This document shows positions 7,501 through 47,700 of a DNA stretch of 64,000 nucleotides, piece by piece. The position numbers and the translations under genes are program-made. A model generated the notes under the pieces. That model was not told where the DNA came from. It saw only the letters and a program-made list of their open reading frames with translations, and ran no database searches. This DNA comes from an uncultured Candidatus Saccharibacteria bacterium (GTDB taxonomy: Bacteria; Patescibacteriota; Minisyncoccia; Phycocordibacterales; UBA918). Every line of letters begins with the position of its first letter. Positions within the stretch are counted from its first letter, which is position 1. Location of the stretch: assembly GCA_964469295.1 (NCBI GenBank), contig CAYXYJ010000001.1, positions 34,334 through 98,333 of the forward strand, written 5' to 3'.

Positions 7501-10500
7501 GGCAATATTTGTTGTATTGTTACCATTAGTAATATTTATTGAATCATACATATCCCAATCATCTGTAGCACTTCCTACTGGCGTCCATACAGCGACCATA
7601 TCGCACGTTGTTACTTTCGGTCCAAATTCTAATCGGTACGTTCGTGATACTGATGTGGCATAGCCTTCGTTACTAATACCAATACGTAAACGAATTGGAG
7701 TATTGGCAGAATGATTGGTTAGTGGAGTATTTTCCATACCAAGCGTAGCTGACGTCGCTCCAGTTTCATTCCCGTTATCGTTACGCCAGTGATAATTCGT
7801 CTGGGTAATGATTGAACCGGATAAAGTAGTTGTGCCTGTTAAGGTTATCGATTCTGACGGTGACACAGATCCACTTGATACCACCACATCATTGGTTGGT
7901 GACTGTATACCAATATGAATCGTTTCCCCATTGTGAGCACCGGCTTCCACATCAAAAACCGCATAAATACACATGGTGGTAGTGGTACTAATACCCACCG
8001 AACCCGAAAACGTCGACGTTCCATTGGGCCCAGAAAAACCATCAGCGTCGGTAGTGCCAAATTGTGACTCACTGCCACTATATGATTCACTGGTACAGTC
8101 GTATGGTGCAGTAGTGTCGAGGTCGTAGCGGAGTTTTATGTTCTTTAGGTTGGTGTTGGCGTTGATGGTACCATCTTCGGCGATGGTGATATTCGAAACG
8201 GTTCTTGTGCTTACATTTTCTTTTATGACAAATTTTCCACCAACATAGGCATTGGTTGTTGGAACAATGAGTGACGATACTTGTGTACCGGTAGCCGCCA
8301 CCGATACATCAGCCGCAATCGTCGCACTCGGGTACCGGTCATACACAGGCAATGCTTGACCATTGTCAGTCAAGCGAAAACAATATGTCGTTCCTTCGTG
8401 TGCACTCGTCGATGCAACAATAGAAAATTCTAATTCAACAAAATTTGTGCTGGTTAATGTTAATGATCCAGTTTCTGACGATGTGTCACGGATACCATCA
8501 TTTGGTGTTAAAAACGTAGTGTTTTCGTCAGTCACCCCCCCGTTCCCAACCGCAATATTGGTAGTGTTGTTGCCGTTGGTCACAAACGATGAATTATACA
8601 TATTCCATGCGTCATTGGTCGCATTCACATCAATCCAAGACGCCGCGGCTTCACAAGTTGGAGCGGCTGTAGCATATTCCAAACGAAAACGAGTTGTGGT
8701 GGCAGTAATCGAACCTTCATTTGAAACCTGTACACGTAGCCGTCGTGGCGAGTTTGCCAGTAATGTTGATAAATCAGTATCTTGTACCCCACCAGTGACA
8801 GAAGTCGCGCCGGTTTCATTCCCGTCATCATTTCGCCAATGATAATGAGTTTGTGTAAACTTACTGTTTTTAATTACAGTGCTTGAAGCTATTTGAACCG
8901 CCGTAATCGGCATGACGGTTTGTCCACCAGTCACCACTACATCGTTATTTGGTGATTCTATAGTAATAGACAGCGTATCGCCATCAACGGCTGTCTTTGA
9001 TACATCTACAACTGCATAGACACACATGCTTTGGGTTGGAGAAATACTTACTAATCCCGAAAACGTCGACGTTCCATTGGACCCAGAAAAACCATCAGCG
9101 TCGGTAGTGCCAAATTGTGACTCACTGCCACTATATGATTCACTGGTACAGTCGTATGGTGCAGTAGTGTCGAGGTCGTAGCGGAGTTTTATGTTCTTTA
9201 GGTTGGTGTTGGCGTTGACGGTGCCTCGTTCGGTAACGGTAATTGTTGTGACATTGCGACTCGCTTGACTTTCGCGTATCGCATATTGACCACCAACATA
9301 CACATTGGAAGAGCTTGCGATGACCGTGCTGGTGGCGGTGCCGTTAGCGTACACTTTTACGGCCGGAGCAATATCAGCAATCGTATCACCGAACATATCA
9401 TCCGGCGACGGGTCATACCATGAGATAAAAATACGTTCATCGCTCATGGTGTTCATATCTAATCCACGAAAGTCTCCCGCTGTACTATTTACTGGACCTT
9501 GAGCCGTTGACCATGACGACATTGCGGATGTCGATGTCGACCAGTAGACATTACCGGTAGTAGCAGTGGCAGGCGTAGTGCGAAGTACATAACCAACGTA
9601 AATATTGTTGGTATTCGTATCCATTGATACTGCCACCATCGTTAATCCTCTTGAAGCAATATTTGTAAAAACATCAGCAGTATTTGACCACGCGTTTGAA
9701 GAATATTTTGCTGTTCTAATGTCATGATCAAGAGTGGTGAATTGATCATTATCGGCAGCATATACCAAATACACATCACCAGAGACAGGATCAACCGTTG
9801 CCGCCATACCAGTGTCGTATGTCGCATTTTCTATAGCGTTGGCATCAAATGTTGTCCAAAGTCCAGACCAACTTGCACCGTTCCAAACCCGAGATCTCAT
9901 GTCATCAGCAGACGTATCTCGATTGATAATCATCACTTTACCACCAAGCAACGGTACGAGTAAATTCCAATCATTGGTCACATCCAAAAAGGCACTTCCC
10001 GCTTCAGTCCAATTTGCAGTATTGTTACAGGTTGTAGAACAATGAACCACAAACGCGTCAGATGCGTCAGCGGTGGCAATAAGTACATCACCGGTAGTAC
10101 TTTTCGTCATTGTGATGTTATTGGTTCCAACTGCCAACGTGGGCACTTGTCCAGAATTGGTCGTGGCATTTACTGGTGACGACCCCAACCATAAAGTATC
10201 GCTTGTTGTATCCAAACGATTGTAATACAAACTATCAGCTGCAGCTGACGTTTCCATAGTGGCAATATGGATATAGTTTCCGCTATCACCTGGCGTCCAC
10301 TGATCATACCAAACCACCATACTGCCACAGTCCGTACGAGCGTCCACAGTAACAGCGCTATTCCAACTTGTACCTCCGGTAGTAGTTTTACTATAAACAC
10401 ATGACCCGTTACTATCCCGATAGAATTTATACCCCACGGTATCAGAAACAAACACGGTTTGTGAACCACCAAAAAAATAGGAGTTGGCATCGGTGCTTGT

Positions 10501-10644
10501 TGTGGCATCTATGGTAACTTGCGCGGCTTCAACTATGACTGGACTAAATAAATATTGTAAAAAACCCCACTGCGATAAAAAAATTATCACAATCAAAAAG
10601 CCAGTTAATCCTTTACAGGCAAAAAGCGCTGGACACCTCCACAT
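4495..10644 (-). CDS. giant secreted surface protein (2049 aa): N-terminal BNR/Asp-box-like propeller region, two tandem ~351-aa modules, C-terminal A-type anchoring-like domain
   Basis: Signal peptide FLIVIIFLSQWGFLQYLF. The N-terminal region has Asp-box-like motifs (KTTTGGTSWNS, SNAWSNT, STSAMSSWST). A tandem duplicated module is present (NANTNLKNIKLRYDLDTTAPYDCTSESYSGSESQFGTTDADGFSG... then YHWRNDDGNETGATS...LRLRIGISNEG...YRLEFG...YCFRLT). The C-terminus ...SAQPAGDYETEIVYIALPVY matches the A1/A2 C-termini. Confidence 0.75.
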   Translation of the reverse strand: MWRCPALFACKGLTGFLIVIIFLSQWGFLQYLFSPVIVEAAQVTIDATTSTDANSYFFGGSQTVFVSDTVGYKFYRDSNGSCVYSKTTTGGTSWNSAVTVDARTDCGSMVVWYDQWTPGDSGNYIHIATMETSAAADSLYYNRLDTTSDTLWLGSSPVNATTNSGQVPTLAVGTNNITMTKSTTGDVLIATADASDAFVVHCSTTCNNTANWTEAGSAFLDVTNDWNLLVPLLGGKVMIINRDTSADDMRSRVWNGASWSGLWTTFDANAIENATYDTGMAATVDPVSGDVYLVYAADNDQFTTLDHDIRTAKYSSNAWSNTADVFTNIASRGLTMVAVSMDTNTNNIYVGYVLRTTPATATTGNVYWSTSTSAMSSWSTAQGPVNSTAGDFRGLDMNTMSDERIFISWYDPSPDDMFGDTIADIAPAVKVYANGTATSTVIASSSNVYVGGQYAIRESQASRNVTTITVTERGTVNANTNLKNIKLRYDLDTTAPYDCTSESYSGSESQFGTTDADGFSGSNGTSTFSGLVSISPTQSMCVYAVVDVSKTAVDGDTLSITIESPNNDVVVTGGQTVMPITAVQIASSTVIKNSKFTQTHYHWRNDDGNETGATSVTGGVQDTDLSTLLANSPRRLRVQVSNEGSITATTTRFRLEYATAAPTCEAAASWIDVNATNDAWNMYNSSFVTNGNNTTNIAVGNGGVTDENTTFLTPNDGIRDTSSETGSLTLTSTNFVELEFSIVASTSAHEGTTYCFRLTDNGQALPVYDRYPSATIAADVSVAATGTQVSSLIVPTTNAYVGGKFVIKENVSTRTVSNITIAEDGTINANTNLKNIKLRYDLDTTAPYDCTSESYSGSESQFGTTDADGFSGPNGTSTFSGSVGISTTTTMCIYAVFDVEAGAHNGETIHIGIQSPTNDVVVSSGSVSPSESITLTGTTTLSGSIITQTNYHWRNDNGNETGATSATLGMENTPLTNHSANTPIRLRIGISNEGYATSVSRTYRLEFGPKVTTCDMVAVWTPVGSATDDWDMYDSINITNGNNTTNIANGNGGITDENVNFLVSNAGVRDTTSTTTALVLATNEYTEFEFSITSTNITLVDSAYCFRLTGGGEMLPQYTNYAEIRTAPKRDFKVQQGVAVVTGTSTTLVAGVDYVAPSSTSTAFVRITDTHFTGAGKVTAGGGAQNADDTTAYISQSNLLTSFTISRPTTAINNTRVTWEIVEFIADPGTDNEMKVLGTGTMSLASASTSATGTTVSGVTDDADVVVFITGIQNRNTGRNFFYASQVTTNWDANNNLPTFLRGSTGAIVDVSYAVVEYSGINWNVQRIEHTYASSTITETEAMNPVNSLERTFIHAQKRISNLSNVNNFGHEVWLSSIGAVSFQLESAATTPSGHTSVAWVIENMQTSAGAMVTSREKLTIPSSNSEPYVLSQSIIDPVSATDNTSIFATSRVVGANSNFPLVFAGARITSTSTYEVWRSEASADMVFRSEIVEWPTSGLAVRQNYYRLYADNNTVTPTDPWPPGVTDLGENSPITVTDSPLGENEHVRLRMTLRVANATLPSGLYVFRLQYGLRTTSCATVGSWTNLGDAGSGELWRGYAATGTTDGVSIGSNPPNPGELLISVSDRVGSLIEDGTSPSNPYPVDAGEDVEYEWFVEQNGAAEKSVYCFRMVHADGTPLDGYFNYPQIRTAGFTPQTKNWRFYDDAQNETPATAMANEIVAPTEVQNGNVIALRVTVGEQKHVRGIDTKFSLQYDEDPNFTHPTTLVASSSCTATSTWCYADGGGQENATITTKVLSDADTCVSAVGSGCGTHNRSAVYAAGHTHNAGANAEYAFYLKHAAARAGAVYYFRLYDVYENLPVPAASGEVYPSLVAETPKLSFTVSGLPSGTSTAGVTTTVSTTPTAIAFGSIAPNTNVYAAHRIGITTNATDGYRIYTYARQQLINSYGVSIPSVTGSNAIPVGWSTGCTASATGCVGYHSTDATLLNGSTRFSPLDSYAGLHTALAEIMYSPIPGNESHDMLYRVLVRSAQPAGDYETEIVYIALPVY
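8003..8166. repeat. 164-bp near-identical direct repeat, copy 2 (inside the 2049-aa gene)
   Basis: Compared by eye with 9056..9219. It is identical except for one G/A difference (gggccc vs ggaccc, giving FSGPNG vs FSGSNG). The spacing is 1053 nt, equal to 351 codons. Confidence 0.8.
9056..9219. repeat. 164-bp near-identical direct repeat, copy 1 (inside the 2049-aa gene)
   Basis: Partner of 8003..8166. The flanking module homology is only ~60% at the amino-acid level, so this core looks recently homogenised. Confidence 0.8.
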
Positions 10645-23856: not shown

Positions 23857-23882
23857 TTACATTATGACACACTGGTTGCGCA

Positions 23883-26755: not shown

Positions 26756-29700
26756 TTATGGTGAAACTGGAGTAAAAACGTTGATACCTTGGTGTGGCGC
26801 ACTATTAACACCAAGAGGTACCGAGATTCCCCAATACAATTGTGTCGAGACGAGAGGGCTTTCAGTTACTGGTTTGTCCAGATTAACTGCCAATTCAACG
26901 GGTGTCGTACTTGACAGAAGTGAACAGGTAGCACAAGCACTATATGAGAACGTTGAAGTTGCCAGTTTTTGTTGTGAGGCTGGAATCACTGATGAATGTC
27001 CGTCAGAGAGATCGGTTCCGAGAATTTCGAGATCAAAGGCAACATTACCAGTATTTGAGACTGTCGTAGTTGGATTATAGGTTCCAGTGTTATCATCAGG
27101 CGCTAATGACCCATAATTAATCGCACTATCAACAGTTAGAGCACGCAACGTGAGCAACTCGACACCGAGCGCTGAGGCAAAATCATACCCACCACCCGTA
27201 TCATTGACTTCCATATAGGCCATCCATTCTTCCCCTTCATATGCACCGGCATCAGTTGGATCGGCATGGAAGTAAATATCAGATGAACACACCAATGAAC
27301 AAGTGTTACCGCTACATGCCGTTAAGTGACAACTATTATTGGTGGTTGAAATGTAACAATTGTTTGTGTTTGCCGAACAAGCCGCACCGGCACCACTGCG
27401 ATACATGGTTGAGGTACCACTGACAATATCAGCGTACCCATTAAAGTCAGTAACTGTACTTGAAGCAACGATCGTTGTGGTTGCGTTTGGTGTCAGCACA
27501 ATCGGCTGTCCATTATTTAGCGTCACTGGACCAAATACCGGATCGAATTGCAACCCTAATTCAGGAACCGCTTCATAATAGTCTAATGGAGTACCATTAT
27601 TGGTCACACGGAAACAATAGCTATCGGACGCCGCTACAGTCGGAGTGATGACATACTCTAGTTCAGTATATGTATGTTGAGGAACATCCATTGCGCTGGT
27701 ACTCGTGGCTGGACTTTCCACGATTCGACCAGTGGTATAGCCGCCACTCATATTTGCCAGTAAGTCAGTAGTATTGTCGTCACCAGTAATATATGACGAT
27801 GATTGCATACATACGGGTGAAGATCCGCATGAAGCCTGGTTTGGTACTGGCGCAAACGAACCTTGAGCCACTGACTCGCAACTTGGAGCCGACGCTTTCG
27901 CTGCGTAATCTAGGCGGAATTGTTGACTGGTAATATCAAGACCAGTGTTTTCAATACCAATACGTAAGCGACGAGTTTCACCCGGAATGGCTCCACCCAT
28001 AGCATTTTGAGCCGCTGCCCACGTAGAGCCACCAGCCGTTTGCTTGGCTCCAAAGTACACTGTTGGTCGCCGTGGACTAAGACCGCGGACAGTGTAACTA
28101 TCCCAAGAACCGTTTTGGAACCAGAAAGTAAAGCCCATACCGCCAGAAGTGTAACTACTGTTAATAACAGTCGTACTCGCCACCAATGATCCGGCGGTGT
28201 TATACAAGTAGGCACTGATGCGGTTGTTGGTAAACCAATCGACTTCAACTTCGTACCAACCCGTAGCGTACGTGACGGTGGTCGATGCCAAAATAGTTCC
28301 AGACACATCGTTATCATCAACGTCTTTTGATATCACCATACGATCTGTACCGAATTGTTCCAAACAAATTGCGTAATTATTATTTGCATTTTGTACAGCA
28401 AACAATGTACACGCTTCATCACCGGAACCAGCACTAATATCAATATATTGCATCCAACGGATTGTTTGATCTTGCGCTGTTTGCGAACCAGTGCGGTAAA
28501 TACCATCAGTGGTACGGCCACTCTTATTTGATGCTTCAAGCGCATAGGTACCACCGTATACTGGAGCAGTATCCGTTTGGAAGAGACTGGTGTCACCACT
28601 ATATTCAGTAATATTGTTGTCTTCAAACGTATCGACAAAGGTAAAGGTATTACCTGCATTACTGGTTGATGAAGCCGTTCCATTACCATAATACATAAAT
28701 ACAGTCGCTGCACCGGTGGCTGGAACACTTGGTACTTGCACCCACACTACGGCTTCGGTACTCGCCACATAGCGTTCGATCCAATACGGTAACGATGTCA
28801 ACCCATTATTACCAGTGAATCGTAGATCATCGAAGTCCGATTGCATACTGTTATCGTACGTCACTAACAACTTTACAGAGGTTGTCGCATACGAGTTGCC
28901 AGTAGCATTATGTACGCGAACACGTTGACGATAATCCCAGTCTCCGTCAAACCATTCGCTATCTGGGGCTCCTTCTCCACCGTTGTCCATACGCCACCGA
29001 GCATCAGATTGGGTGGTCAACAGACAAGCACTGTCATTAAATCGAATTGATCCACAAGCATCAAGACCGTCAATGTCAAATCCTTCAGTTCCAAGTGAGC
29101 CGTAGGCATCAGTAAACCGCCACGCGTTTGTTGTCGTACCAACCAACTCCACACCGTATCCAGATACGGCACCCGCATGCATTCCAATCGCGTTATAAAT
29201 TTCCGATGCGTTGGCGTCTACCACACTACTGGTGACAGTAATCAAAGATCCAGTATCAACCACTAATCGTAAATTATTATTACTGAATTGTGATAGATTG
29301 ACATTTCCTGATAACGCAATACCTTCTGACCACATATCAGTCACTGAGGCATACCGCATTGACAATGAACCACCCATAGCGCTAAAAGCATAGGTGCCAC
29401 CATTAAGCGCTGCTATCGATGTGGTTGCGCCAACGCCACCAATAATATCCAGGGTACCAGACATCAATGTACTTGAAGCTGACGGGGCAAAACGTACCGT
29501 TACCGAACGTTGGGCTGGACCAGTGAGTGTTGTTCCATCAAAATCAATTGAATAACTCCAATATTCAGACGTCGTAGCAATGGTAAAGTCACCATAAATA
29601 TTAAGTACCCCATCAACCGCTCCGTGATCTTGTGAATACAACGAAGCAGTCAATCCAGTCGTAGTCGTGGCAGCTGAACTGTTCCACATACGAACGTGCG

Positions 29701-32700
29701 CCGAATTAATGGTTACTGTTGCATACACATCGCCACCAGCAGTCTTGGTATTAATGGTAAATGGATTAGTTCCAGTGAGTTGCAACGTACTATTTGTCCA
29801 ATTTGTCGCACTACCACCAACAAGGTTAGTAAAGACTCCACCAACAACGAGGACGGTACTCGAGGCTTTCGTGAACGATGACGCTGACGAGAGCGTAACA
29901 TTATTAGTAGCGGTCGCATTTCCAAGCCAGGTCCAACCACCAGACGCACTACCAAAATTAACATTGTACAGTGTACTGCTACCAACAGCGATGGTTTTAC
30001 CTGTCGTCACCGCATTAAATAACACGGTGCCTGATGAATGAGTAAAGTTGGTACCGGTTATACTCATTGATCCACCAATCGACAACGTTCCAGTCGCTGC
30101 AACTAACGTACCAGAGGCAACGACCAAATCATCACGAAGAGTTAGTGAATTATCCAACATGGTGAGGGTACCGTTACCGGTCTTGCGGAGGGCAAATAAA
30201 TCGGAATTATTCGCTCGCAACACTAACGATCCTGAACCGGTCATAATGATATCTGAGGTGTTATGAGTGACGGTCCCGCTTGCCACTTCAAATGAACCGC
30301 CAACGGTCAAAGAACCGCTTGGAAGCGTTACCGCCCCACCAGCGATATATACCGAACCAGTGGTTGTGGCGTTAGTATCAGTCATTGACCACGATCCTCC
30401 ATTTCCGGTGAATCGGACTGGTGGCACGACACCGTCATCAAAGCGTACAACATTACCCGTTGAAGTGCTGGTAAAGATTAAAGCGGTGCTTGGCATAGTA
30501 AAGCTGCCGCCAGTCGCATTAAACGAAGCGCCTATTGTTGTAGTGCCGCTACCAAAAGTAACTGAACCAGCAGACTGTGAGTATGATCGTTGTGTAGTAA
30601 AAGTGTTATCTGTTACGGTATACGATCCCGAACCAGTAAATCCAACGTTGTAGAAATGATTACTGTTCACATCAATCGTGCGACCAGATACCGACGACGT
30701 AAAGGTGGTTGTCGATTGCCCCGCTTCAAAGACGGCTCCCGTTCCAAATAGGAAGTCCCCGGCCACGCTATGAGTTTCACCGTTTGCGGCTCTGAATCGT
30801 GCATTCGTAAGCGCTTCCATGGTGCCATCGACAGCATCACCAGCGCCACCACCGGCGAGCGTGACATTACCATTTGGGGCAAAGGTTTTACCGCTCCAAA
30901 TAATGAGTTTGCGATTAGCTCCAATATCGAGCGTATCATTTCCGGAATCAACCGCCGTAAATGGAATATCGGCATCATCAGAGCTATCCCATACGGCCAT
31001 ATCAGCAATTGTTATCGGATCAGTATTTTCGTGACGAACGATAATTCGGTTTTCATACAAATGCATGTTGCTAATTGATGAAATTGGCGATTTAGTAACA
31101 TGGGCGGCTTTTTGGGTTTTGCCATCAATGTACACAATCAAACTATCGAGAGTGTTAAAGGCCACATTACTGATACTATATGCACCAGTAGATGCATTAC
31201 AGGTAGTACTGTAACTTGTAAGACCAGCCACTCGTAATGTTACGGCATTGGTTACCCCGTCACAGACCATTGATACCGTACTCCCTTCGTCACTATACAC
31301 ATTACCAGACACAGTAATGAGTGCTTGCGAATCATCCCACACCAAGTATCCTGGGTCACCGGTTGGATCCACGTCATAATTTTCACCAGCAATATTTCCG
31401 ACGTGGTTAGTAAAGCGCCAAGAAGTTACCGCCGTACCCGTAGCCGTAACGTTACTCGCGCCAGTAACACCAATATCCGCCGCAAATACATTATTTGTAA
31501 AGTTTCTAGCTTCGTTCGCATTGAGGACTGTACCACCAACAGTAATACCAGTACCACCGTTGACTTGTACCAGGTGATCGGTTCGTGAAAAATCAACGAC
31601 TGTCGGGGTACCAGAAAATTCAAGTCCACTACTCTTTAGATTGCGTAACACCACGCGATTCCAACTCGTTGACGCCGTACCACCAATCATCAAGTTATAT
31701 GAACCACTACCTTGATTTTGAATCGTCGTCGATGCACTCGTGCTACCAATGACAGACAACGATCCACCAGTCCACGTACCACGAGCATTATCAGCAAAAG
31801 CTACCGTTACCGCCCGACCATTTCCACCCAAAAGAGGTGTCCCATCAAAGTCCGTGGCGTAACTCCAATAATCATTAGCAGTTGTTTCGTTGAAATTACC
31901 ATAAATGTGCAACAATCCATTGGTGCTATTGTGATCCTGTGAATACAATCCACCGTCAATAATATAACTCGAGGCATCAGAGTTCCACATTCGTACACGA
32001 GTGCTCGATGCAACTGATAACGTTCCGTAACTATCGGCGGTTGTTGACGCGTTGATGCTCATACTGCCACCACCAAACAAATGGAGTCGGGAGCCAGTCC
32101 AAGTCGTTGATGTTCCACCGATACTGTTAATGAAAGAACCTCCAATCGCCAACGACTGACTCGATGCAACAGTGAAATTGGTATGATTAGAGAGAAGCCA
32201 TGAAGCGGTCGCAGTGGCATGTTCGGTCACAGTAAAGTTACCAGTACCGTTGATTGTCACCGAACTAAATGGTGAAGCTCCGGCAGCGATAGTTTCCGTA
32301 CCACTACCAGTGAAAGCGACCGTACCACTATTCCCCACAAAATTTCCGTTATTATCGTAACTACCAACAATAGTGAGGGTGGAGCTATTACTGGCTAACA
32401 CTGTTCCGCCGGTATTAATCAACAAATCGTTTCCAACCGTCACCGCCGGATCGTTGGTGTTGAGGTTGAAGGTAGTACTCGCTGTGCCACCAATTACCAA
32501 ATTATTAAGTGTAGCGAGACCACTGCCAATTGCCGTCATCGTTGAACTACCAGCGGCCGCATTTATTACCAAATCATAATACGTGGTACCGAGTACCGTT
32601 GCCGAGTTACCACTGTAACGCACTCGACTGGTTCCTTCTATAAAAGTACCAGTTTCAGTAAAGACCGTACCAGTGCCTGCCAAATCCCACGTCGATGACC

Positions 32701-35700
32701 CCGCCGCAAAGAAATGAGAAGATTGGATGAAGAGTAGCCCTAATACGGTAGTAGTCGTGGCGGTTGCTGGTGTGGTTGTACCCACTATTGATCCGTTTCC
32801 TAAGGTGAGATTGTTGACCGTCCACGCAGTATTACCACCAAAGGTATTTGATTGTTGTAATGTCAGCGTGCCACCACCCAATGACAACACACCGTTACCA
32901 GTAATTGAACCATTGGTTAAAGTGATATTACTCGTACCGGTAACAGTTCCCGCATTAACATTCATTGCGCCATTAACAACGAGCGGTGCCGTAATATTCC
33001 ACGCCCCACCCGCACCAACAAATTGCAGGTTATTGAACGTAACGGTATTTGGAGCAGTAATGCTCTTACCGGTGGTAGTGGCTGTAAAGACAAACGTTGA
33101 TGAAGCCGGGGTAAGGATCGACGTTGTGGCCATCACCAATCGGCCGGCCAATGAATGAGTTTCTGTACTAGTTGCCAAGAACGTGGCGTCAGCACCAATT
33201 TGTAGGGTCCCTTCAGCACTTGAGGTTCCGGCGTTACCAAGCAATGATACATTGCCACCCGGCGCGAAAGTCGATGAAGCAAACACCGACAACCCTGACC
33301 CTGACAACACTGACAGCGAAGACGTCGTCGCGATGAAGCGAATATCCGTATCATTATCGTAGTCATACAATACCAAATCAGCAATCGTTAACGGTGCGAC
33401 ATCTTGGTGTCTTGTCGTCAAATAATTTGCATAAATATTCATATTGGTGATATTGGCAGTCGGCGTTTTGGTCACACTCACCCCTTGCGCACCACCGTTG
33501 GTATTGAGGTACACCGTAATCTTTGGATCGCCAATGTATGTCACATTACTAAATGTGTACGCACCAGTGGCCGCATTACAACTCGTTGACGCCGTGTATG
33601 AACCGCTATTTACCACTAATCGAACATTTGGTGTGGAACCGTTACAGGTTGGAGCACCGATTGGTGAACTACCGTTAGCACCATAGACAAAGCCAGACAC
33701 GGTGATGGTATTCGAACTGTCGTCAAAACGAATTGACCCCGGATTACCATCATTAGTATCAAACGATTCGCCGTATAAATTCCCCACCCCGTCACGGAAC
33801 CAAATAAATGATGAGGTAGTGCCAACCAGCGTAACGTTTGACGCTAGACCGGTTGAGGTGGCAAAACCGATACGGTATAACTGGGCTGACGCATTTTTTG
33901 TCACGGTGCTACTACTAACAGTGATAGCAGTTGAACCAGACGCGACGGTAAAGAATCCATCTCTAAAGATACTGAGAGTCGATGACGCATATAAACCAAG
34001 TCCAGCGTTGTTCGTACCAGACACCCTAAATTGTTCGGCGGTAACAGTTGTATTTGAAGCATTTAATGTATAAGTACCTGCCAATGCATCAATAGTAGAC
34101 GATGCCCCAGCCACACCAACAAAATTGAGTGATGAGTTTACAAATCCAATATAGCCACTCGTTGCTACTCGTATATCCACTTGTCGAGCACTACTCGTGC
34201 CCAATGCTGTGCCGTCAAAGTCCGTGGCGTAACTCCAATATTCAGTACCAGTTGAACGAATATAATTACCATAAATATTCAAATCACCATCAACGCCGGC
34301 ATGATCTTGTGAATAAATTGAACTGGTATCAAGTGTACTGTACGTAGAGGCACTACTATTCCACATAGCCACATCGGTATCACCAACCACTTGTAACGTG
34401 CCGTACACATCACCACCATGAGATTTATTATTCATTGTATGGTCCGTACCAGACAACCGCAAAATCGAACCCGTCCAGGTTGTCGCTGTTCCCGAAGCGG
34501 CGTTGGTAAACGTCCCGGTTGATTCAAGAATGCGACCATTCTGTAGCGTAAACTGCGACGCTGCTGACAACAAGATAGCCGTCGTGGCGGTGGCGTTTTC
34601 GGTTACGGTGAAGTCACCTGATGCACTATTAAATTCCAATGTCGCAAAGGTGGAACTACCCGCGGCAATTGTTTCAGCTCCCGCAGTTGAATTAAAGCGA
34701 ACCGTTCCCCCGTTAGCAATAAATTTGGCGTTATTATCAAATGAGCCACCAACGCTCAGGATTCCCGTTGGGAAAGTAGCATCACCAGAAGTATCCAGGA
34801 TAAAGTTGCCGAGGATTGATACATTTGTATCTGTGAAAATTCTTGATCGCACCAATTCTACGCCGCCAATTGTATAAAAATTAGTGGTAGTACTGGTATT
34901 TTTGTATTCAGCATCCTGCCAAGCCGTACTACGAATAACGTTTGAAATACGAATTTCATCAAGCCGGCCATCAAATTCAATATTACGGTTATCACGCAGG
35001 TCTCCAATTGTTGAGTAAGAGTTCCAGGTGGCTGCACCATCGTTGCTAAATGAAAGCACAGGATTAGCGTTGACTCGTACTGTTGAGGCACCACCGTCAA
35101 TGGCCGTCGCTGACACGAAATTCCATTGTCCGGTCGAAATACCCGCGCCTGATGTTGTGTTACAAGTTGAATTTGATGTAAAAGCACAGAATTTCAATTC
35201 CGAGGTAGCTCCCGTCCCTCCAGCCGTTAACCAGGTGTAATTCGTATCGTGGGCTGAGAAAATGGTAAACCCATACGTTGCCGTGTCGCCAGAACCAGTT
35301 AAATCATCCGGATTAAACCAAGCAGATATAGTGATATTTGCCGAGCCGTAACCAACATTTGGAATAGTAATATCGTCACCGCTGTAATCTTGGGCATTAT
35401 ATATTTTGCCGGTTGTAACGACTTGTGGGTTATTTGCGCTATCTTTTGTTCCATCTCGTGATGTCGTTGCACTGTTTTTGATGCTACTGGTAGTAAGGTC
35501 ATTCATGTGCGCTACAATAACGTACCCATTATTCCACACTGCTAATGAGCCATACGTCGCATTGTTGGCATAACCACTCGCCGCAGCGTTGCCGTAATAT
35601 ATATAGAATGTTGCATCAGTAGTAGAAGAAAGTGCGTTAGCTCTAAAATATAATTCTCCGACTTGCGTACCAGTGTTGATTGACACCAATTCAATTGGTA

Positions 35701-38700
35701 CTTCGGTCATACCATCACTTTGAGTAACGCGAATATCACCACCATCAGCTTTAGTATTACTAAAGAAACTACTTGGCAAATCATGCAAATCAACATAAAC
35801 AGGGAAATTCGTAAGACCAGCACTGATTTGATTGGCTTTGACGACAATTGGTAAACGATAATTCCAACTATCGTTATACCAAGAACCCGCTACGCCACCA
35901 CGAGTACGCACATGATTAAAGGCTGAACCATTGGCACGAACCGTATTCGCATCCTGTACCAGAAATACTACCTCACCATTATTGTGAGCAAAGGCGCCGG
36001 TACCACTTACATTAAAATCACCGCCGACTGTTAGGGTACCTGTCGGCATCGTCACCGTACCTGATTGGATGCGGAAATGTCTTGTGGTAGTAGCAGCTGA
36101 TTCACTAAAGCTCCAGGCGCCACTACCAGCAAATACCACGTCATAAAATGTATTGAGGAACGCCGTTGCCCGTTGTGTGATTGTTCGTCCACCGGATGTA
36201 CTGGTAAATCGTACTTCACCATTATTGTGAGCAAACGTACCACCAGTATTCAAGAATGAACCAGCGATGGTTGTTGTGCCTGTCGGTAAGGTGACGGTTC
36301 CGGTAGCAATCGTCAAATTGCCGGTTAACGCTAGTGTCGATGTTGAAAATGACCAATTGCCCCCCACGCCAGTAAAAGCGAGGTTATTAAATGATGAAGC
36401 ACCTCGGTAAATAACCCCGGTTGATGTTCCCACAAAAGTAACGGTACCGGTTTGAGGAATAAACGAATTGTTATTCACCCATGCTTTATAAACATTGATA
36501 TTATACCCACTACCAGAGCTATTTAGGGTATCGTCAGCACCAATCGTAACGGTATCAGCACCAACGTTACCAGACAGCGTAATAGTTTTAGCGGTGCCAT
36601 CAACCACCACATACCCGGCGTTAGTACTTGTAGTAGCAGACTTAGCATCACCCCAGGTATGAGCACCACTTCCAGTAAATGACGTTGTAGCCAGACCGGT
36701 CATTGTACCACTACTTCCCAAACTCAGATTACCCATAATGGCTATAGTTTGAGTATTTCGCGCCAATGTTCCGTAATTAATTGCCAATGATCCCTTCACT
36801 GATAATGGCTTGCTGAGTGTCCAAATTGCTGCCCCAGACGTTTCACCAAAGGTAACGTTAGCAAACTCAATACTCGTCGTTGCTGATTCAATTTGTGGAC
36901 TGGTACTCGTTGCAGTGAAAATAATAGTTGATGCATCAGTAGTAAAGGTGCCGAGCTGCTTCCAGTCACCACGGACACGCAATGTGTTCATGGTTGGCAA
37001 AAATGTTCCGTTATTTTGGAAATGAATGACCGAACCATTAGCCCCAGGCTGGTAGGTACTACCAGAAAGTACACGCAAACCAGCATCACCACAAGTGGAT
37101 TCATTACATAGATTTAATATGTTGCCGCCAGCTACATCGTAAAAGATGTCTTCATTATCAGAGTTTTTGTAGACTTCCAAATCATTATTCGCAATAATTG
37201 GAGCATCATCAGAGCCAATCGTTACATGTCGGGACGACAATTGCATACCGGTAATATCACCGTTACCGTCATATTTTGTTACGGCGACCGCTTCGAGCGA
37301 TCCGTCAACACTTTGTCTAAAAATTGTCACTACATCACCGACGGCAACGTTTACGTTTGGAATATTCCACACTCCCGGCGTTGTTGATCCTACCCAACTA
37401 ATAACTACTCGTCCGTTACCACCAGCAGTACCCGCACTTCCTGCAGCGCCTCCAGCGCCACCGTTACCAGCGCCGCCAGCATAATCAGCATCACCAATAT
37501 TGGCTGCTCCAGCGCCACTACCAGCAATCGTACTGGTGGCAGTAGCACTGGCATATATATATGACGAACCACCAGCGCCGCCAGCACCAGAATGTAACGC
37601 ATTCATACCGCGCGCACCGCCACCGCCGCCAAAATATCCAGCGCCACCGCCACCGCCGCCAGCTTCGGCCGTAGCACTATTTCCAGTTCCGCCAGCGCCG
37701 CCACCAAATACTTCGGCAGTACCACCGGCACCACCACTGACTCCGCTGTCACCAGCGCCACCTAATAGGGACGCGCCGGATGTAGCGGCACCACCGGCAG
37801 TACCACCGGCACTTTGTGTACCACCAGTACTGGCCAATAGTGGAATGCGATATCGAGCAATAACCAATCCTGATCCGCCGCCACCGCCATATTGAGTCGC
37901 CGATGTACCGCCAGCGCCGCCGCCGCCGCCGCCAGTGTTAGCCGTAGCCGTTACTCCATTATTATTACCAACGCCACCATTACCGCCACCGTGACTAGCT
38001 GTTCCGGCAGTTTCTGCATTTCTTTTTCCACCACCACCACCGCCGCCAAACCAACCACTCACACCCACACTGGTTCCCCACCAAGCACTGAGATCACGAC
38101 CAACGCCACCATTACCGCCTGAGGTATTAGAACCAGCACTCCCAGCACTTCCAGCGCCACCACCACCACCGCCAGACTGGTCATTCGTCGCATTCGCCGA
38201 GCCACCCGCCCCTCCATCATTACCAAATCCCGCCGTACTCGTACCACCAGCATGCGATACTGCATTAACATTAGTGCTACCACCACCACCACCTGAGGCA
38301 CCAAAGAAACCAGTTGATCCATCATTTGGTCGATCTCCACGTAAACCACCACCACCACCAATAGCTGTATTAGCAGCGAACGACGTCGTACCACCAGTCT
38401 GGCCATTTCCATTGGCGGTATCAGTGTTATCGCCACCAGTTCCGCCCGCGCCAATCGTTACTGCATAAGAACTGGTTCCGAGGACTTGGTTTTCCAATAT
38501 TTTTATCGCGCCAGCGCCGCCACCACCACCGCCGTACCGATAGCCACCACCACCACCACCACCACCCACAAGGAGTAAATCAACAGATCGGGTGCCGCTC
38601 GTCACCTGGAAAGTGTCACTACTCGTAAATACATGGTGTCTAAAGCCGAACATATCAGTTGTCGCACCACCAGTAACACTAAAGACAGTATCGTTAGCGC

Positions 38701-41700
38701 CACCATTGCCACCAACTAATCCACCACCAGCACCGCCAGCGCCAGCACTTGCTAATTGAGTCGCTGTTTCTGGACGCAGATTAAAATTAAATGATCGTCC
38801 GGCGAATGCCGCTGATTGTGTCATACTTGGCACCCCAAGAGAACCGGCACTATTTGTCGGGGTATCATCAAAACATAAAAAGATAGAGTTATCGTTACCG
38901 TTCGTGTTTGTCGAATAAAACGCTGTATTAACGCCACTCGGCATACCACAAGAACCACCTGATGGTCCCCAATCACGGTCATCAAGCGAACCACCAACAA
39001 ACACCAACATTGAATTAGCTACCGTGCTGGAAAGATTTGGACCAGTGTACGTTGTCGCCGCGGTTTGGCTATTGTTTGCACTCACTTGGTCAAATGGATT
39101 ACCTGTTCGCGCTACCCCACGGAAAGCCCAAATACGACCAATGTAACTATCCGTTGCCGGTCCGCCAAATGTTGGCATCAAAGGAGTGGTCGTACCTTGT
39201 CGTAAATACCACACTGACAATTGTCCATTGCCACTTGTCTGTGAAGAAAATTCAGTCCATCCACTACAGTTTGTTACACACGTGTGCGCTGTGGCCGTAC
39301 GTGAATGCAACACCGCAATCAGTACGTCATGTTCAGCAGTTCCTTGTGGAATATTTGGTGAACAATTGGTTGCGCTTACGGCACATTCAATTCCCACTCC
39401 AACATACCCGATACCGCCGCCGCCGGCACCACCACCACCGCCGGCACCCGCAATCACAAGAGGTGTCGAACTACGGTATATCCCAGCGTAACCGCCGCCA
39501 GCGCCAGCGCCAGCAGGTGAAGCAAACAATCCGCCGCCGCCGCCGCCGCCAACTCGAACTGACAAGTTCTCTGCCGGTGTGACTGGTAATGTTGCCTGCA
39601 CAAATCCGCCGCCGCCGCCAAAGGCCCCAGCATTACTCACACCACCACCACCGCCGCCGCCGCCGCCACCCCAGGCTTTCACCGTCACGGCAGTTACACT
39701 CGCTGGCACCGTAAAGGTGGAAGTACCGGTGCTTGAGAAGATAGCTTTTTGTGTTCCTGTCGCTGCGGATATATTGGCAGTTTTACCAGATTGCAATACA
39801 CCATTAATCGCAACTGCAATAGTGCCTTCGGTTAATGGAGTAGATTGATCATACGCAAAGGCTATTCCTGAAATGGAAATACCTTCAGACCATTCCACAT
39901 ACCAATCAAGTAATGCCGGGCAGTCACCACTATCACATATCAGTTCAGCTTCTAATTGTAATTTTTTATATATGACGGGTTCGAGATCAGTGATATCAAC
40001 TGGACCACTCGTAATCCCGGCAGCATTACCAGCAATTTCACTATCTGGTACCAATGCATATGTTCCAGTAGACACTTCGTAATAGACCCGATATTTAATC
40101 AAACTAGCCCCCGGAGTAGTGTCGTTCCAGCCAATTGATTCCCAACGCGGACTACCGCCATCGCTAAAATTAATTGGAGTTGATCGTATGGTACCGTCAA
40201 CGAAATTAGGGGAAATTTGTGCGGCCATGGCAATAGAATCATGGAATGGCGTACCATTAACAGACGGTAGACTGCTTATTACCTCTTGTCCCGTCCACGC
40301 TGTTCCATCCCAGTAGGTAAATAAATATTGGTCAGCCGGGGCAATACTGTCATCTTTCAAAAACATCGCTAAAATCAAACCATTTGCCGTACGAATCGTT
40401 TGTGTTGTCCAGGCTCCGACGTTGAGATTAAGACCGGTGATATTTTGTTCACCAGAATATGATGACGTGGCGTAATATTGGTAACGAGCATTTACGGTGT
40501 CAGAATAAGGAATCATTACATACCCATCACGACTTGGGGTGGTTTCAAATTCACAACTTACTGGTCGACCTGCTTGACTATTACCAGCGGTATCAAGGGT
40601 GGTGTACGTATCCCACGCGGCACCGTCCCATAACGTTGTACTAATTTGTCCATCAATGTCAATGGCACAGAACGCTAATCGGTCAGTACCAACGTCTCTT
40701 TTAATAACGCCATGTTCAAAATCATCTTGCAACGTTTGAGCAAGAGTCCCAGACCAATTTGAACCATCCCAAGTGTTGTAAAGAAAACCGGCATTATTAC
40801 CATTACTTACGACTATTATTGCTTGATTACCTGAAGCTTCGTAGTCAACGGCAATACCTTCGTTAGCCGCCCGGCTCATATCGCCGAAGGTTAAACTATG
40901 TCCCCAACTTGAACCGTTCCACACCAACGCTTCATAATCTGGTGAACCGGTAATTTCGTGCTTAAATACGGCAATAATTTCATCTGAGGTCGGATCAGAC
41001 GCGGTTTGAATAAACTGACAGTTTGTTCCTTTTGTAAGAGAAATCGAAGAAGTGGCGCTCCAACTTGAACCATTCCAAACACTATAAACAGCATTAGTAC
41101 CCTCACAAGCAATCGCGAGTAAATCGCCGGAATTAGTTTCGTAAGCGATACTTTCCCCGCGATATCCGGTATTGGCAATACTCGTCACTAATTCGTTCAT
41201 ATCACCCCATGTCCCCGTCAATCCGTCGTAGATTTGCACATTGACATCCCCGTCGGTACCTAACGTTGCCAGAGCGTATTCATTACGTTTTGGTGCTGCT
41301 TTGAGGTCAGACCATTCAATCAGAGCACCCACTTCAAGGGCTGTTTGTGGATCACTCCAGGCGGCACCGTCCCAAATGCGGTATCGTGGCAAAAATGATG
41401 TGGATTCACCATACGCTACCATCGCTTCGGTAATGGTTGTCGTGATTTGTGCTTGTGTTTCAGTTTTTTCAATATTGCGATTATCATTGGTTAAAAATTG
41501 ATCACCAGTAGTTTGAAACCACGTTGACACACCTAATCCGACACTGACGGTAAAGCTATTTGGAGCACTCCAATCTGAATACGCGTTTTCGTCGTTAATA
41601 TCACGGGCCCGCACTCGCCACCAATAGGTGGTGTTGTTACTAAGAGGAGATTGGAACGTATACGAAATAACTTCATTGGAATTAAATGGTGTGGTGTCTG

Positions 41701-44700
41701 CTGGAGTAATCTCATTAGCAAAACCACTAACGACTCCAGACACATACGTTGTAGAAGAGACAAAATTTGCGGTCGTAGAAATCTGTACCTCATATTCCAT
41801 ACTATCTCCCTGAGGATCAGCAGTTTGGAAACGCAAAATCGGTGTTGCAGAATTTACTTTAGCGTTATCAAACGGGGTAATATGATTTGGCATTGTGATA
41901 CGCTCGCCCCACAATAATGACCAGCTTTCCAGTCGTGGTAAGCTATCATTCCCCGTCATAATCGCCCTAATGCGAATAGTGTGATACACCGTAGTACTGA
42001 GACTAGCGAGACTCACACCAGACGTATCAAACCCAGCCGCATTACCAGGCAAATCAGCATCCGGTATCAATTCCCATTCGTTTCCGGACACCAGATATTC
42101 AATCGAATATTTTATATCTCCTGATGATTCATTGTCGGTAAATTGTAGTAAGCCCCACGCATTGCCGGTATCAACATCAGAAAAATGAATAGCCGTACTT
42201 GTTGTTGTGGCCACCGTAAAGCCAGTAGCAATACGAATATCGTCAGCAACATTAATAGCGGCATCGATTAAATCATCGGTGTCAAATTGTTCTTTGGTAG
42301 TTTGGAACCACGTCGTAATAGCAGTGGCAGTATTGATGGTGACACTTTTTGCCGTTGACCATTCACCATAGGCTCCAGAGCCTTCATCATCACGGGCTCG
42401 CACTCGCCACCAATAGGTGGTGTTGTTACTAAGAGCAGTTTCCGGAATAAAACGGATGATTTGGCCAGGTGTATACAATCCACGTTCAGACGGACTTGAT
42501 AAATTGGTGAATTGAGAGAAATTAGCTCCCGATTCACTGACAACATCTGGCGAACCAAACGTGTAGTCAGTATCCACTTCAATTTCGTACGACAACATAT
42601 CATCCAAAGCGTCAGTAGTAGCAAATTCAAACCACGGTGTTGTTGATGCTGTTTGTTCGTTATCAAATGGCGCAAACAAATCTGTCGATAGAGGCGGTGC
42701 ATTAGTGATCAGTCGAGGGTATCGATTATATACACTTAACAACGCATCATTCTCATACACTAAACGGAAACAATAATTAGTATTAGCAACAGCATTGTTA
42801 TTTTGAAGGACAAAATCCCATTCAGCACTACTTCCGACCACAATTTGGTGTTGATTTTCACGAGTAGGATTTTCCTCTTCATACGTTTCGGCATAGGTTG
42901 AAGACGCAAGTAATGTACTTGGTAAATTGCGACCGTCACTAATCAATTGTTCTTCAGAAATATCGTAAAATCCAGTTGGATTACCTTGGTTAAAATACTC
43001 CGTTCTTAACCAACCATTGGTACGACGAACATTTGAAAAACGTAATTCATCGATATCTCCTTCAAAGCCTTGTGATGGATCACCGCCAAAATTGTGCCAA
43101 TTTGAATTACCGTTTTGAGCCACATCTCCAAATAAACGGGTGGTTGAACCATTAAAATGGACGTCAACTTTGTTGCTACTGTCTCGTGTAACGACAACAT
43201 ATGTCCACGTACCATCTGCCGGGTGATTAATTGCCGTGTCACTGGAACCTCCTGGCAACACCCGCACAAAGGCTCGTCCGTTACTTGGTGTATTCCAAGC
43301 ACCAATTTTTTCATTTGAACCGCCATCAGCACTCGCCAATGCAAAACCATTACCATCAACAATATTTTGGGTTCGCCACCACAAAGAGACGGTGAAGGTT
43401 CCTGAAAAAGTAAGTACATTTTCAAAGAATGCCCCATCGTTTCCATCGTGATTTATAGCTTGACCAACCTTACCACCAACCACATCTCCAGCAGTCATAC
43501 CAGCAGTACCTCGCACCACCGCATCATTACTATACGACGTACTGTCTTTTATTTGTGGACTGGACGCAGCCGGATTATCGTCCATAGCATACCGCAATCG
43601 ATATCCATTAGACCACACATTTTCCGAGCCGTATGTTCCATTTGCAGCATACCCCGAAGCACCGGGATTGTTGTAGTAAATATAAAATTCGCTATCAGTA
43701 GTTGAAGATACCGACGCTTTAAAATGTAGCTCTCCCGTTTTGCTAATCGTATTAATGGCTACTAAATCTCGCGGTACTTCAGTCAAGCCATCAGCAGTCG
43801 TAACGCGAATATCATCACCATCACTTTGAACACTCGCAAAGAAACCGTCAGGTAGATCTGCTAAATCTACATATACCGGGAAATCCGTGAGGTCTTCGCT
43901 TACTAATGTATGATCAACGGTAATTTTTAATCGGCGAGCCCAACCAGAGGCATACCAATCATCACCAACCACCGCATTAGCATAACCACGCCACAACGCA
44001 GTCGTACTGCCGATTTCTCCTACATCTTGCCAATTTAGCGAAGGTGAACACGTCAAACCAGGAGCATATTGCAACTTTAATGTGACGGTGCTGGTTGGTG
44101 TATTAATATTCAATCCCCGCAATGATGTCCGTAAACGAATTGTCTCATTAACACTAATAGCATCTCCCGCACCAAACGATGTATTGATGGGAGTATCAAT
44201 GATACCAACCGGCCACGGATCAGTCGGCGTCAAGAAACTACCATTTACAAACCACTGATATTCATTTTGAATTAACTTTGGTTGACGTACCCAAGTAATA
44301 TTCCAATCATTGAGAGAGGCCGATACTTCAGCGGCGGTCGTAATTGCTGCTTCAAGACAAATTTGTGAATAGGTAGTGGTACTAAGACCAGAAAGATCAA
44401 TCGGAGCAGAGGCCGCTGAAAAACCTGTATCATTTCCGGTGAGTACACCATCAGGAATATAGGCATCACATGTTCCCACGTTTGAATATTTGACTCGCAC
44501 CTTTATCGTAGCGCCAATTGGCTCAGTTGTCGAAAACGACAAGTCGCCCCATTTTGACTGACCAGCAACACTAGAGAAAGCGACTGGGCGCGTAGTCATC
44601 GTACCAGCCGAATAACTAAATCGCCGTGTAGCAATTGAAAATGATTCACTACGCGGATCAGCGTTCGTTTCCGCCGGATTAGCTTGAATCAGTGTATTTG

Positions 44701-47700
44701 GGGACCAATTTGTACCATTAAACGTACTCGCGCGTAATGGATCAACGCCTTGATTTTCCATTCCGACTGCCAATATTGTACCGTCCCCAGTTCGCGCTGT
44801 TTGTAGGTACCAAAATTCCTCCATATCCGACATATCGAGCGGACCCGACCAACTGGTATTAAGATACTGATATTCATCAGTATTGGCATCAGAATAAGCC
44901 ACGATAAAATTACCGTCCCGGCCAGGTATCGTTTCAAATTCACAATCAAATGGACGACTTTGAGTAGATTCTGTTGTGCTTTCAAGTTGGACCTCAGTAC
45001 CCCACACTTCACCATCCCAAATAATTGCGTTGATATCAGAGGCGTCGTCCACCATACAAAAACCAATTCGGTCAGTACCTTGGTCACGCACCAGCTGTCC
45101 ATTTTCAAAATCATTAGTATTCCCAGATACCTGCACCGTAAAGACCGCTGACCAATCAGCTCCATTCCAGGTAGCGTATCGGAACTCATTATCGTTACCA
45201 TCAGATGATACGACCATGGCCTGATCACCAGATTCTTCATAGACCACACTCATACCCTCAGTGGCAACGTTGGTCCCGGCTACCCGTCCAAGAGCAATAC
45301 TATCAATCCACGCAGTACCGTCCCAAACATGGGCTTCGTAATTATCAGCCGCATTTTTTGTCACCAGAATCAATTCATCGGACGTCGGATCAGCGGCAAT
45401 CGTGAGCCAATTACAGTTATTGGTTGATGCGACATCAACCGAGCTTGTTGCCGACCAAGTACTGCCATTCCAAATAGTGTACACCGGATCTGCTCCAACA
45501 CTACACGCCACCACCATTGCATCTCCAGATGTGGTCTCGTGGGCAACAGCTAGTCCACGTCTTGCTGGGGTATTTAAATCTGTTACAAACTCGTTTTGAT
45601 GTCCCCACGATGATGTACTGGCACTGTACACAAGAGCATTCACATCACCGTCAGCAGTAATAAACGATGCCACGTATTCATCACGAATATTGCCAGCAGA
45701 TGATTCGGCCCAATAAATTTCCGCTCCAAGATTAGGTCCGTTGGTTTGTGCTCCCCAGGCTGTCCCATCCCATAATCGGTACATCATGACGGTTTCAGTT
45801 TTTTCACCGTATACCAGCATCGCTTCCGTGTTATCGATAACATCAACCACAGCACCACCAGATCCATTACCAACGACACCAACTAAGTTATTACTTAAAA
45901 ATTGCGCGTCGACAGTTTGATACCAATCAGGCAATGTCATCAATGTATTGACAGTAAGACTCTGTGTCGTCGACCAATCGCCAAATTCATTTGAACCAGA
46001 CACGTCCTTAGCCCGTACGCGCCAATAATAAGTGTTGCCACTTACCAAAGCATCAGCCCCTTGTAATTGATACCGAATTTTTTGTCCTTCAATAAATGGA
46101 CTGGTATCGCTTGTTGAAGCAGTATTAGTAAAACCACTGTCAATATTAGAAAATCGCTCTATCGCTCCAACGAAATCACTCGACGTTGAAATTGAAAATT
46201 CGTACACCAAATCAGAACTGCCATCAGGATCGGTTGTACTAAAATCAAAATATGGCGTTGTCGACGCAAAGCGAACATTATCAAATGGAGCATTGTAATA
46301 GGTAGCAGCACCTGGTCGAAAATTGAGCTCCTTCTTTTTCCATAGCATTAACAATGCGTCAGTACGATCATTTACGACAGTAGTATTGGCATCCCGTAAT
46401 GCCTGCACACTCACGATGGTTCCCGGCGTTAAACCAGCTAAATTATAAACCAGTGAACCAGAAGAATCTTGGTGGCCGGAGCTGTTTGTTACATAGTGAG
46501 ATTTCGTTTGAGCGCCCGGCACTGCCACTCCATTTACAAACACACTAATTATAACGTTATTGGTTCCTCCTGCAGTGTAGAGCGCATCGTTATACGTCAA
46601 GAGATAGTCTCCACTTTCGTTAATTGTCACATCACCAGTGTTGGAAGATGTAGAATGAGTAAAGGTGATGTTATCGTACGCTATTTGTGTATCCCATAGT
46701 ATCTTTTGAGCAGGACTTGGGTTCCAGTTAGTACCACCAGAAAGATCACGTCCTCGTAAAGCAATAACGTCATCAGTCGGGAGTTTTTGAATAAAAACTG
46801 ATCCAGTAAATCCATTCGGCACGGTTGTGGTACCCGCCGACGCTTCTTGTTCCATCGTGATAGTCAATATTTGGTTGGTAGTGGTAGCCACAACAATACC
46901 CGACCAGTGGTTTGTGGAATAATAGTCAGCATTGGCCGTAACTATTTGTAATCCCTGAGAAAAAACTCCTCCAGGCACTTGTGCTCCATCAAGAAATACT
47001 CTTCCGAGCACGTTACGGTAGGCAGTCGCTCGTGAATCGAATGGCATATTAACATACACTAAATACATACCGGGGTCTGAAATAGTGATATTCTCAGGAT
47101 TTATGGTGTCAGAGTGAACATAGCCAGAATCTTGGCGGGTTTCTGTCCACAATAACGCCGATGTCGCCGTGTTAAGACTCGTTGATGCTACCGTTCTGGT
47201 CGCTGTGGCCGCAAACACATCAGCGGTTGTCGGCATATGCTCGACATAGAGACTGGCCTGACCGCTAATAGTAATCGGTTGCGCCACATAACTAGTAAGT
47301 GCTTGTGCATATACTTCAATATAATCACCAACATGGAGATTCGTAAGTAAAAAACTACCATGATCAGATGATTCATTTTGCCGATCAGTGGAACTAGCGT
47401 TATAAATTAAACCACTTCGACCAATAGCGTGTGGCACCACGACACCATTCACTCGCACTTCAAATCCAACACGGGCCCATTGGTTATTAATTGTGTCATT
47501 ACGTTCCAGCGGTATAGTGACAGATACTTGATAATCACCATTTTTCTGAACATACAATCGCTGTGGCGATGAACTCGTCGAGTGCGCAAAATAAAATGAA
47601 TCAACGGTACTTGTACTCCATAATAATGCACTTGGTGACACTTCATTAAGATTGGTTCCCAACTGTGAACGAGTGCCAGTTAACCACGCTACCGAAGAAA

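Follow-up and report, generated by a model that had tools for sequence, protein, structure and literature searches.

The subject of this study is a domain shared by two giant open reading frames (ORFs) of an uncultured Candidatus Saccharibacteria bacterium (GenBank assembly GCA_964469295.1, contig CAYXYJ010000001.1, forward-strand positions 34,334 to 98,333). This stretch of 64,000 nucleotides (nt) was analysed as a whole and is referred to as the window. ORF A (26756..50005) encodes 7749 amino acids (aa) and ORF B (4495..10644) encodes 2049 aa. Both lie on the minus strand, as do all domain copies and nested modules given below, both carry an N-terminal hydrophobic segment and both are strongly rich in Thr, Ser, Gly and Ala. 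The original prediction, made from the letters alone, described an uncharacterised domain of 120-160 aa with about nine instances, one of which (hereafter the flagged copy) was placed at nt 27568-28048. This stretch indeed encodes aa 7320-7479 of ORF A, including the motifs RRLRIGIENTG, FRLDYAA and SYCFRVTNNGTPLDYYEA, and all motifs quoted at that time were recovered in ORFs A and B. Judged by sequence, the domain constitutes a real and new family that is unnamed in Pfam and NCBIfam.

Copies of the domain and extent of the family

The window holds six copies, four of them contiguous (B1 to B4, in ORF B) and two interrupted (in ORF A). Two of the instances counted before, 'TIRLRTSLRGLN/LWRGYANA' and 'NYCFRLVYENDALL', proved to be the N and C halves of a single copy, ~330 aa apart. 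The length had likewise been set too low: it was measured as ~175-190 aa, with a median of 174 aa over 446 full-length profile matches among the collected proteins. Five copies were excised and compared by pairwise BLAST. B1 (8299..8859, aa 596-782) and B2 (7249..7809, aa 946-1132) are 51% identical (E 3e-55), and B1 and the flagged copy share 30% identity over 155 aa (E 3e-17). B3 (5554..6138, aa 1503-1697) matches B1, B2 and the flagged copy with E-values of 1e-6 to 1e-11. B4 (5011..5547, aa 1700-1878), which abuts B3 and is followed by a conserved C-terminal domain, is weaker, but still significant (E 2e-4 against B3 and 2e-3 against B1). Similarity among the window copies is far above chance, and when the ORFs of all six frames of the window were searched with a profile of the copies, ORFs A and B alone were matched.

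A word-indexed homologue search that took the five copies as queries brought up no more than 19 short fragments, most of them a B4-type copy plus C-terminal domain, so that an exhaustive profile search was needed. This profile search of protein sets, already envisaged in the original prediction, covered 1.84 billion cluster representatives and yielded 3491 proteins at E<=1e-3, 1673 at E<=1e-10 and 421 at E<=1e-30. The highest copy number was 22 matched stretches (19 full-length) in one protein. A member of 2047 aa (P0029; 13 members in its 90% cluster) has four matched stretches placed much as in ORF B and looks like its orthologue. Looked up exactly in public assemblies, ORF B had no match. 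Among the top 148 proteins, one full copy follows the previous one directly (<=15 aa) in 194 of 313 cases, some ~170 aa typically remain between the last copy and the C-terminus, and 96 proteins have an N-terminal hydrophobic segment, as do ORFs A and B. Four of the 148 (P0020, P0022, P0023 and P0094) have a pilin-type N-terminus.

Scanning genomes with a type-I pattern (subtypes are defined below) gave 75 loci, nearly all in metagenome-assembled genomes (MAGs) of Patescibacteria. The suggestion of a lineage-specific domain is roughly right, but multi-copy members, always named 'hypothetical protein', also occur in MAGs labelled Chloroflexota and Nitrospirota. Because a type-I-only alignment was used, the taxonomic picture is biased. 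The family is widespread and resides mostly in giant, predicted surface proteins of ultra-small Patescibacteria. P0020 (MFC1925596.1), from a Chloroflexota MAG, combines a type IV pilin-like N-terminus with 13 copies in 2536 aa, from which it follows that the domain can ride on pilin-like proteins outside Patescibacteria. Its N_methyl match lies just below the Pfam cut-off, and a sub-threshold C-terminal match is to a galactose-binding-like domain.

Named families were sought by sequence-versus-profile searches. Pfam-A gave no family for the five window copies at E<=10, NCBIfam gave no match on ORF A or ORF B, and a PHROGs scan returned nothing usable. Searched against Pfam, 62 diverse members produced only scattered sub-threshold matches to 33 unrelated families, none reaching a gathering score. 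Precomputed Pfam annotation of relatives showed either nothing or PF10102 only, and searches of PDB sequences with two profiles gave noise only. In these searches the domain did not map cleanly onto any Pfam family, and the window copies had no Pfam-A, NCBIfam or PDB sequence match, in agreement with the original view that no named family is involved.

Predicted fold and split copies

An AlphaFold2 (AF2) model of B1, based on 62 diverse rows, reached a predicted local distance difference test (pLDDT) score of 96.4 and a predicted template modelling (pTM) score of 0.92. The model is an all-beta sandwich with the conserved motifs on strands and a long excursion at residues ~66-130. Having a two-sheet Greek key and superposing on solved immunoglobulin (Ig)-like domains, it was classed as an Ig-like sandwich of E-set type. 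Between the jelly-roll and the Ig variant considered originally, the predicted fold is the Ig-like one, not the jelly-roll. The core strands carry the motifs Y-R/H-W-R-N-D-D-G (A), R-L-R (B), F-x-L-x-Y (C), E-x-E (F) and Y-C-F-R (G). In 404 aligned copies (B1 numbering), R43 (400 copies), E143 (380), Y160 (379), F162 (383) and R163 (389) are near-invariant.

The excursion, ~65 residues between strands C and E, sets three sequence subtypes, which differ chiefly in this part. B1, B2 and the flagged copy are type I. Type II comprises B3 (WRGY...EYEW...YCFRMV) and the second split copy of ORF A. Type III, represented by B4 (CTATSTWCY...GCGTHN...YYFRLYD), has extra Cys pairs and always stands just before the conserved C-terminal domain. 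Cys70 and Cys161 are both present in 230 of the 404 copies (~57%) and both missing from 162, leaving 12 mixed copies, a count that takes the copies as independent. A disulfide between these two residues probably ties the excursion to strand G.

The flagged copy is real, but as originally drawn it is incomplete: it matches the profile only from position 10-14 on (aa 7319/7323-7488). Its main part (27542..28060, aa 7316-7488, profile positions 10/14-178) runs from RRLRIGIEN to YCFRVTNNG..YYEAVPE. The first strand lies ~310 aa upstream, where QSDARWRMDNGGEGAPDSEWFDGDWDYRQRVRV represents the type-I N-terminal strand motif (Q-x-x-Y-H/R-W-R-N-D-D-G) fused to the start of DUF2341. This displaced strand (28967..29011, aa 6999-7013, QSDARWRMDNGGEGA) directly abuts the nested module (28061..28966, aa 7014-7315), which consists of DUF2341 and a concanavalin-A (ConA)-like lectin/carbohydrate-binding module (CBM) fold. 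Orthologues of the flagged region, 40-65% identical, were found in Kaiserbacteria, Parcubacteria, Pacebacteria and Minisyncoccia MAGs. Among the orthologue rows shown that reach that far, 15 of 17 have the strand followed by DUF2341, in the more canonical form Q.HYRWRNDDGGEG.P.SEWY..W..RK.V.V. These orthologues bear the NCBI name 'DUF2341 domain-containing protein, partial' because DUF2341 modules share the protein with the flagged domain. An AF2 model of aa 6995-7495 of ORF A, based on 36 orthologous rows (pLDDT 90.5, pTM 0.77), has a confident 10-residue strand at aa 6997-7006, of the same length as strand A of the B1 model. From sequence and secondary structure, we infer that this strand docks onto the C-terminal sandwich of the flagged copy.

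In the second split copy of ORF A, the N half (43958..44275, aa 1911-2016) covers profile positions 2-96 (matched at aa 1912-2016, independent E-value 5.4e-11; ...TIRLRTSLRGLN...LWRGYANA) and the C half (42695..42961, aa 2349-2437) covers positions 87-182 (matched at aa 2349-2440, independent E-value 1.1e-19; ...EWDFVLQNN..NYCFRLVYEND..YNRYPRL). Pfam finds Laminin_G_3 (E 1.1e-10) and, weakly, DUF2341 (E 0.085) in the ~330 aa between them (42962..43957, aa 2017-2348). The flagged domain itself matches neither PF10102 nor PF13385; such matches fall in the two inserts, nt 28061-28966 and 42962-43957. The reported co-occurrence with LamG/DUF2341 modules is therefore true but understated, the modules being physically nested inside two copies. 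DUF2341 (PF10102) and Laminin_G_3 (PF13385) reside in the same proteins as guests, whereas the flagged domain forms the sandwich that hosts them.

Split copies recur across the family. The strand-A motif stands directly upstream of DUF2341 also in the unrelated members P0078, P0119 and P0140, while in P0092 it precedes a module related to the DUF2341 one. A regular-expression count over 257 collected proteins placed the motif at ordinary domain starts in 112 cases, as an orphan in 39 and elsewhere in 10. The orphans are followed, 160-720 aa later, by a domain match that lacks the first 8-19 profile positions. Downstream of a DUF2341-fused strand, in ORF A, its orthologues and paralogous proteins, matches start at profile position 10-16. 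A further 13 split pairs were identified in relatives, with breaks clustering after profile positions ~41-54 (B-C loop) and ~117-125 (excursion). Their inserts have no BLAST similarity to DUF2341/LamG, so that the idea of the same inserts as in ORF A was dropped; several are internally repetitive. At the level of sequence, the split topology, in which a whole foreign domain sits within an Ig-like one, is shown.

Proposed role of the domain and comparison with known systems

With moderate confidence, we regard the domain as an Ig-like extender and split domain that builds a stalk and projects lectin-like modules. In tandem arrays it would form a rigid stalk. As a split domain it would act as a socket: the chain would exit behind the first strand, in the B-C loop or within the excursion, fold into another module and return to complete the sandwich, thereby projecting that module sideways off the fibre. 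Both copies of ORF A, including the flagged one, would be sockets for DUF2341/concanavalin-like lectin modules, and the four copies of ORF B plain stalk units. This stalk and split-scaffold role is favoured because of the tandem arrays, the secretion/anchor signals, the conservation of core strands next to variable loops, the probable stabilising disulfide and the foreign domains repeatedly nested at a few ports. Glycan or host-surface binding would then be a property of the inserts.

Several points weigh against this assignment. The extracellular stalk and display function and the docking of aa 6997-7006 are predictions; a second long strand (aa 7315-7324) could fill the strand-A position instead. 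The Cys co-variation statistic ignores phylogenetic non-independence, and the taxonomy was drawn from one type-I-specific pattern scan plus MAG labels. Moreover, by strand alternation R43, E143 and R163 seem to lie on non-core faces and could provide the domain with its own binding site.

The main rival starts from the latter point and takes the domain itself to be the ligand-binding unit, CBM-like or host-receptor-binding, with the excursion and R43/E143/R163/Y160 as the site and tandem copies conferring multivalency. It would account for the near-invariant charged residues on seemingly non-core faces, for three subtypes differing mainly in the excursion and for the fact that, in A, B and many relatives, the C-terminal domain is always immediately preceded by a copy, and it draws further support from the O-antigen-binding domain of Wzt and from CARDB, both weakly similar in structure. 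The arrays, the core-strand conservation and the nested lectin-like inserts favour a stalk or scaffold over a binding unit; we consider this rival unlikely, and the binding function was the weak part of the original prediction. That the domain belongs, much diverged, to an Ig-like family or clan already described (e.g. CARDB or other E-set/Big) and was missed by scanning single sequences with hidden Markov models, is less probable again. The matches scatter over 33 unrelated Pfam families without a gathering score, NCBIfam and PDB sequences add none, ~70 of 188 residues fall outside the aligned structural core, and both the motifs (YRWRNDDG / RLR / ExE / YCFR) and the preferred insertion points are peculiar to this family. 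That the shared motifs merely reflect composition in giant low-complexity proteins rich in Thr, Ser and Gly, to which the bias of both ORFs might point, has practically no probability left and is refuted by pairwise E-values down to 1e-55, by a profile that matches only ORFs A and B in the window yet thousands of proteins elsewhere, and by the very confident fold prediction.

The stalk and split-scaffold role has a precedent. In Gram-negative RTX fibrillar adhesins, such as AhLap, MpIBP and FrhA, Ig-like split domains project ligand-binding domains: past its first strand the chain leaves the sandwich, builds a CBM or another binding domain and then comes back (PMC12077191, citing Graham et al. 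2024, Proteins 92:933). By sequence, the flagged copy appears to share the Ig-like sandwich in a giant fibrillar-type protein and the exit after the first beta-strand with return to complete the sandwich, and in RTX adhesins, too, uninterrupted copies of related Ig-like domains act as extenders in tandem. There is no sequence relationship, however, and the two systems differ in inserted module (CBM, RTX roll or vWFA in RTX adhesins; DUF2341 and ConA-like lectin in the flagged copy), in size (~100-aa bacterial Ig-like extenders against ~175 aa with a 65-residue excursion), in insertion sites (one against at least three) and in hosts (Gram-negative bacteria against mostly Patescibacteria). RTX extenders are rigidified by Ca2+, where the present domain has a likely disulfide. 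RTX adhesins further have C-terminal RTX nonapeptide repeats, a type I secretion signal and an N-terminal retention module, whereas ORFs A and B have N-terminal hydrophobic segments and Cys-rich or beta-rich C-termini. Neither A nor B has an RTX/HemolysinCabind or related Pfam match, nor could RTX repeats or a type I secretion signal be detected in either. Membership of the RTX adhesin family was accordingly rejected.

CARDB (PF07705), the MG domain of alpha2-macroglobulin and other E-set sandwiches superpose over only 94-115 of 188 residues and lack the excursion, motifs and Cys pair; CARDB is a ~100-aa sandwich without a large excursion. CARDB membership was rejected, no profile match being above threshold. 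Fold matches to pilin stalk domains and to the CLIPPER domain (9ifr) raised the idea of CnaA/CnaB-type or CLIPPER-like isopeptide bonds. Gram-positive pilin and adhesin stalk domains (RrgB, BcpA, SpaP/AgI/II, CLIPPER 9ifr) have Lys-Asn/Asp isopeptide bonds, formed with a catalytic Glu/Asp, whereas the present domain has a co-varying Cys-Cys pair; nor was a sortase motif seen, in analyses not aimed at one. No Lys occurs among the invariant or near-invariant alignment columns or the 20 tabulated key columns, so that pilin-type isopeptide chemistry is not expected and the idea was discarded.

A more far-reaching proposal regards the family as a plug-in scaffold that episymbiotic ultra-small bacteria dedicate to display, a disulfide-stapled Ig-like unit with three ports (after strand A, the B-C loop and the C-E excursion). 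Lectins, beta-helical repeats and other, mutually unrelated binding modules would be swapped into these ports, and such cassette exchange would diversify the host specificity of giant adhesins. We consider this proposal possible but doubtful.

Other modules, gene neighbourhood and significance

Besides the two split copies, ORF A contains three DUF2341/ConA-like modules, three Ig_Rha78A_N domains and Gly_rich_2. The third DUF2341/LamG-like module (aa ~4700-5075, window ~34900-36000) is 36% identical to the nested aa 2017-2348; in the profile search of the window no domain match flanks it, so that it is not nested, and long Thr/Gly/Ser-rich repeat regions of beta-helical appearance stand on either side. 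A long Gly-rich region (aa ~3800-4400, window ~36800-38600; Pfam Gly_rich_2, GGGGG runs) lies upstream of the three Ig_Rha78A_N-like domains. The protein ends in a Cys-rich domain of ~260 aa (aa ~7489-7749, window 26756-27541) with many invariant Cys, which is conserved among orthologues and further members of the family (P0050, P0074, P0151, P0149, P0155 and others). The C-terminal ~170-aa domain of ORF B (aa ~1880-2049, window 4495-5010) ends in ...GDYETEIVYIALPVY and is present in many metagenomic proteins, always directly after a type-III copy; this ending may resemble WxL-type surface domains. The two C-terminal domains have no Pfam match and no detectable similarity to each other. A second repeat in ORF B, X, of ~165 aa (aa ~430-595 and ~782-945, window ~8860-9350 and ~7810-8300), has near-identical stretches (NANTNLKNIKLRYDLDTTAPYDCTSESYSGSESQFGTTDADGFSG) and no Pfam match. 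ORF B has an (X-Y)2 arrangement, since X alternates with copies B1 and B2.

The window is rich in surface-assembly genes, encoding cohesin/dockerin proteins, WxLIP_PGBD/LytR_C, a MacB-type ABC transporter, GH18 and a CAP-domain protein, which is consistent with a patescibacterial cell-surface locus. Cohesin proteins (13936-15669 and 50054-51616) and dockerin proteins (18469-19593 and 52273-54201), with Big_13/Big_6 modules, flank gene A; their domain content suggests that cohesin-dockerin pairing serves for assembly at the surface of these cells. WxLIP_PGBD genes are located at 1874-3535, just downstream of B, and at 55745-56836, one of them also with LytR_C. On a related contig (L001), a WxLIP_PGBD-like gene (4746-5648) follows a fragmented B-like gene, a hint that a cluster of surface-protein genes similar to the Firmicutes WxL loci is conserved. 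Immediately downstream of A and on the same strand, 22642-25205 and 25269-26750 encode a MacB/FtsX-type ABC transporter pair and an Fn3/purple-acid-phosphatase-N protein, which may be export or processing partners of A.

How Patescibacteria recognise and hold on to their host cells is largely unknown. Genetic work has demonstrated that epibiotic growth of Saccharibacteria needs multiple adhesins and glycan-binding surface proteins (PMC10633639), and giant DUF2341-bearing proteins have been noted in Patescibacteria, not dissected (PMC11809585). The Ig-like extender and split-domain principle of fibrillar adhesins is already known; the sequence family, as a recurrent host for nested modules, is new. 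The split-domain display of Gram-negative RTX adhesins would have an independent counterpart in a very different lineage. The finding is valuable for annotation and because it points to modules by which Patescibacteria may bind their hosts, rather than as a new mechanism. Naming the domain would annotate a sizeable share of thousands of 'hypothetical' giant proteins. On the split-scaffold view, constructs could be given correct domain boundaries, so that the proteins become experimentally tractable, and candidate host-binding modules would be sought downstream of an orphan strand-A motif, up to the truncated domain that follows it. Should the plug-in proposal also be true, orphan 'HYRWRNDDGGE' strands could mark the host-recognition modules of Patescibacteria from sequence alone.

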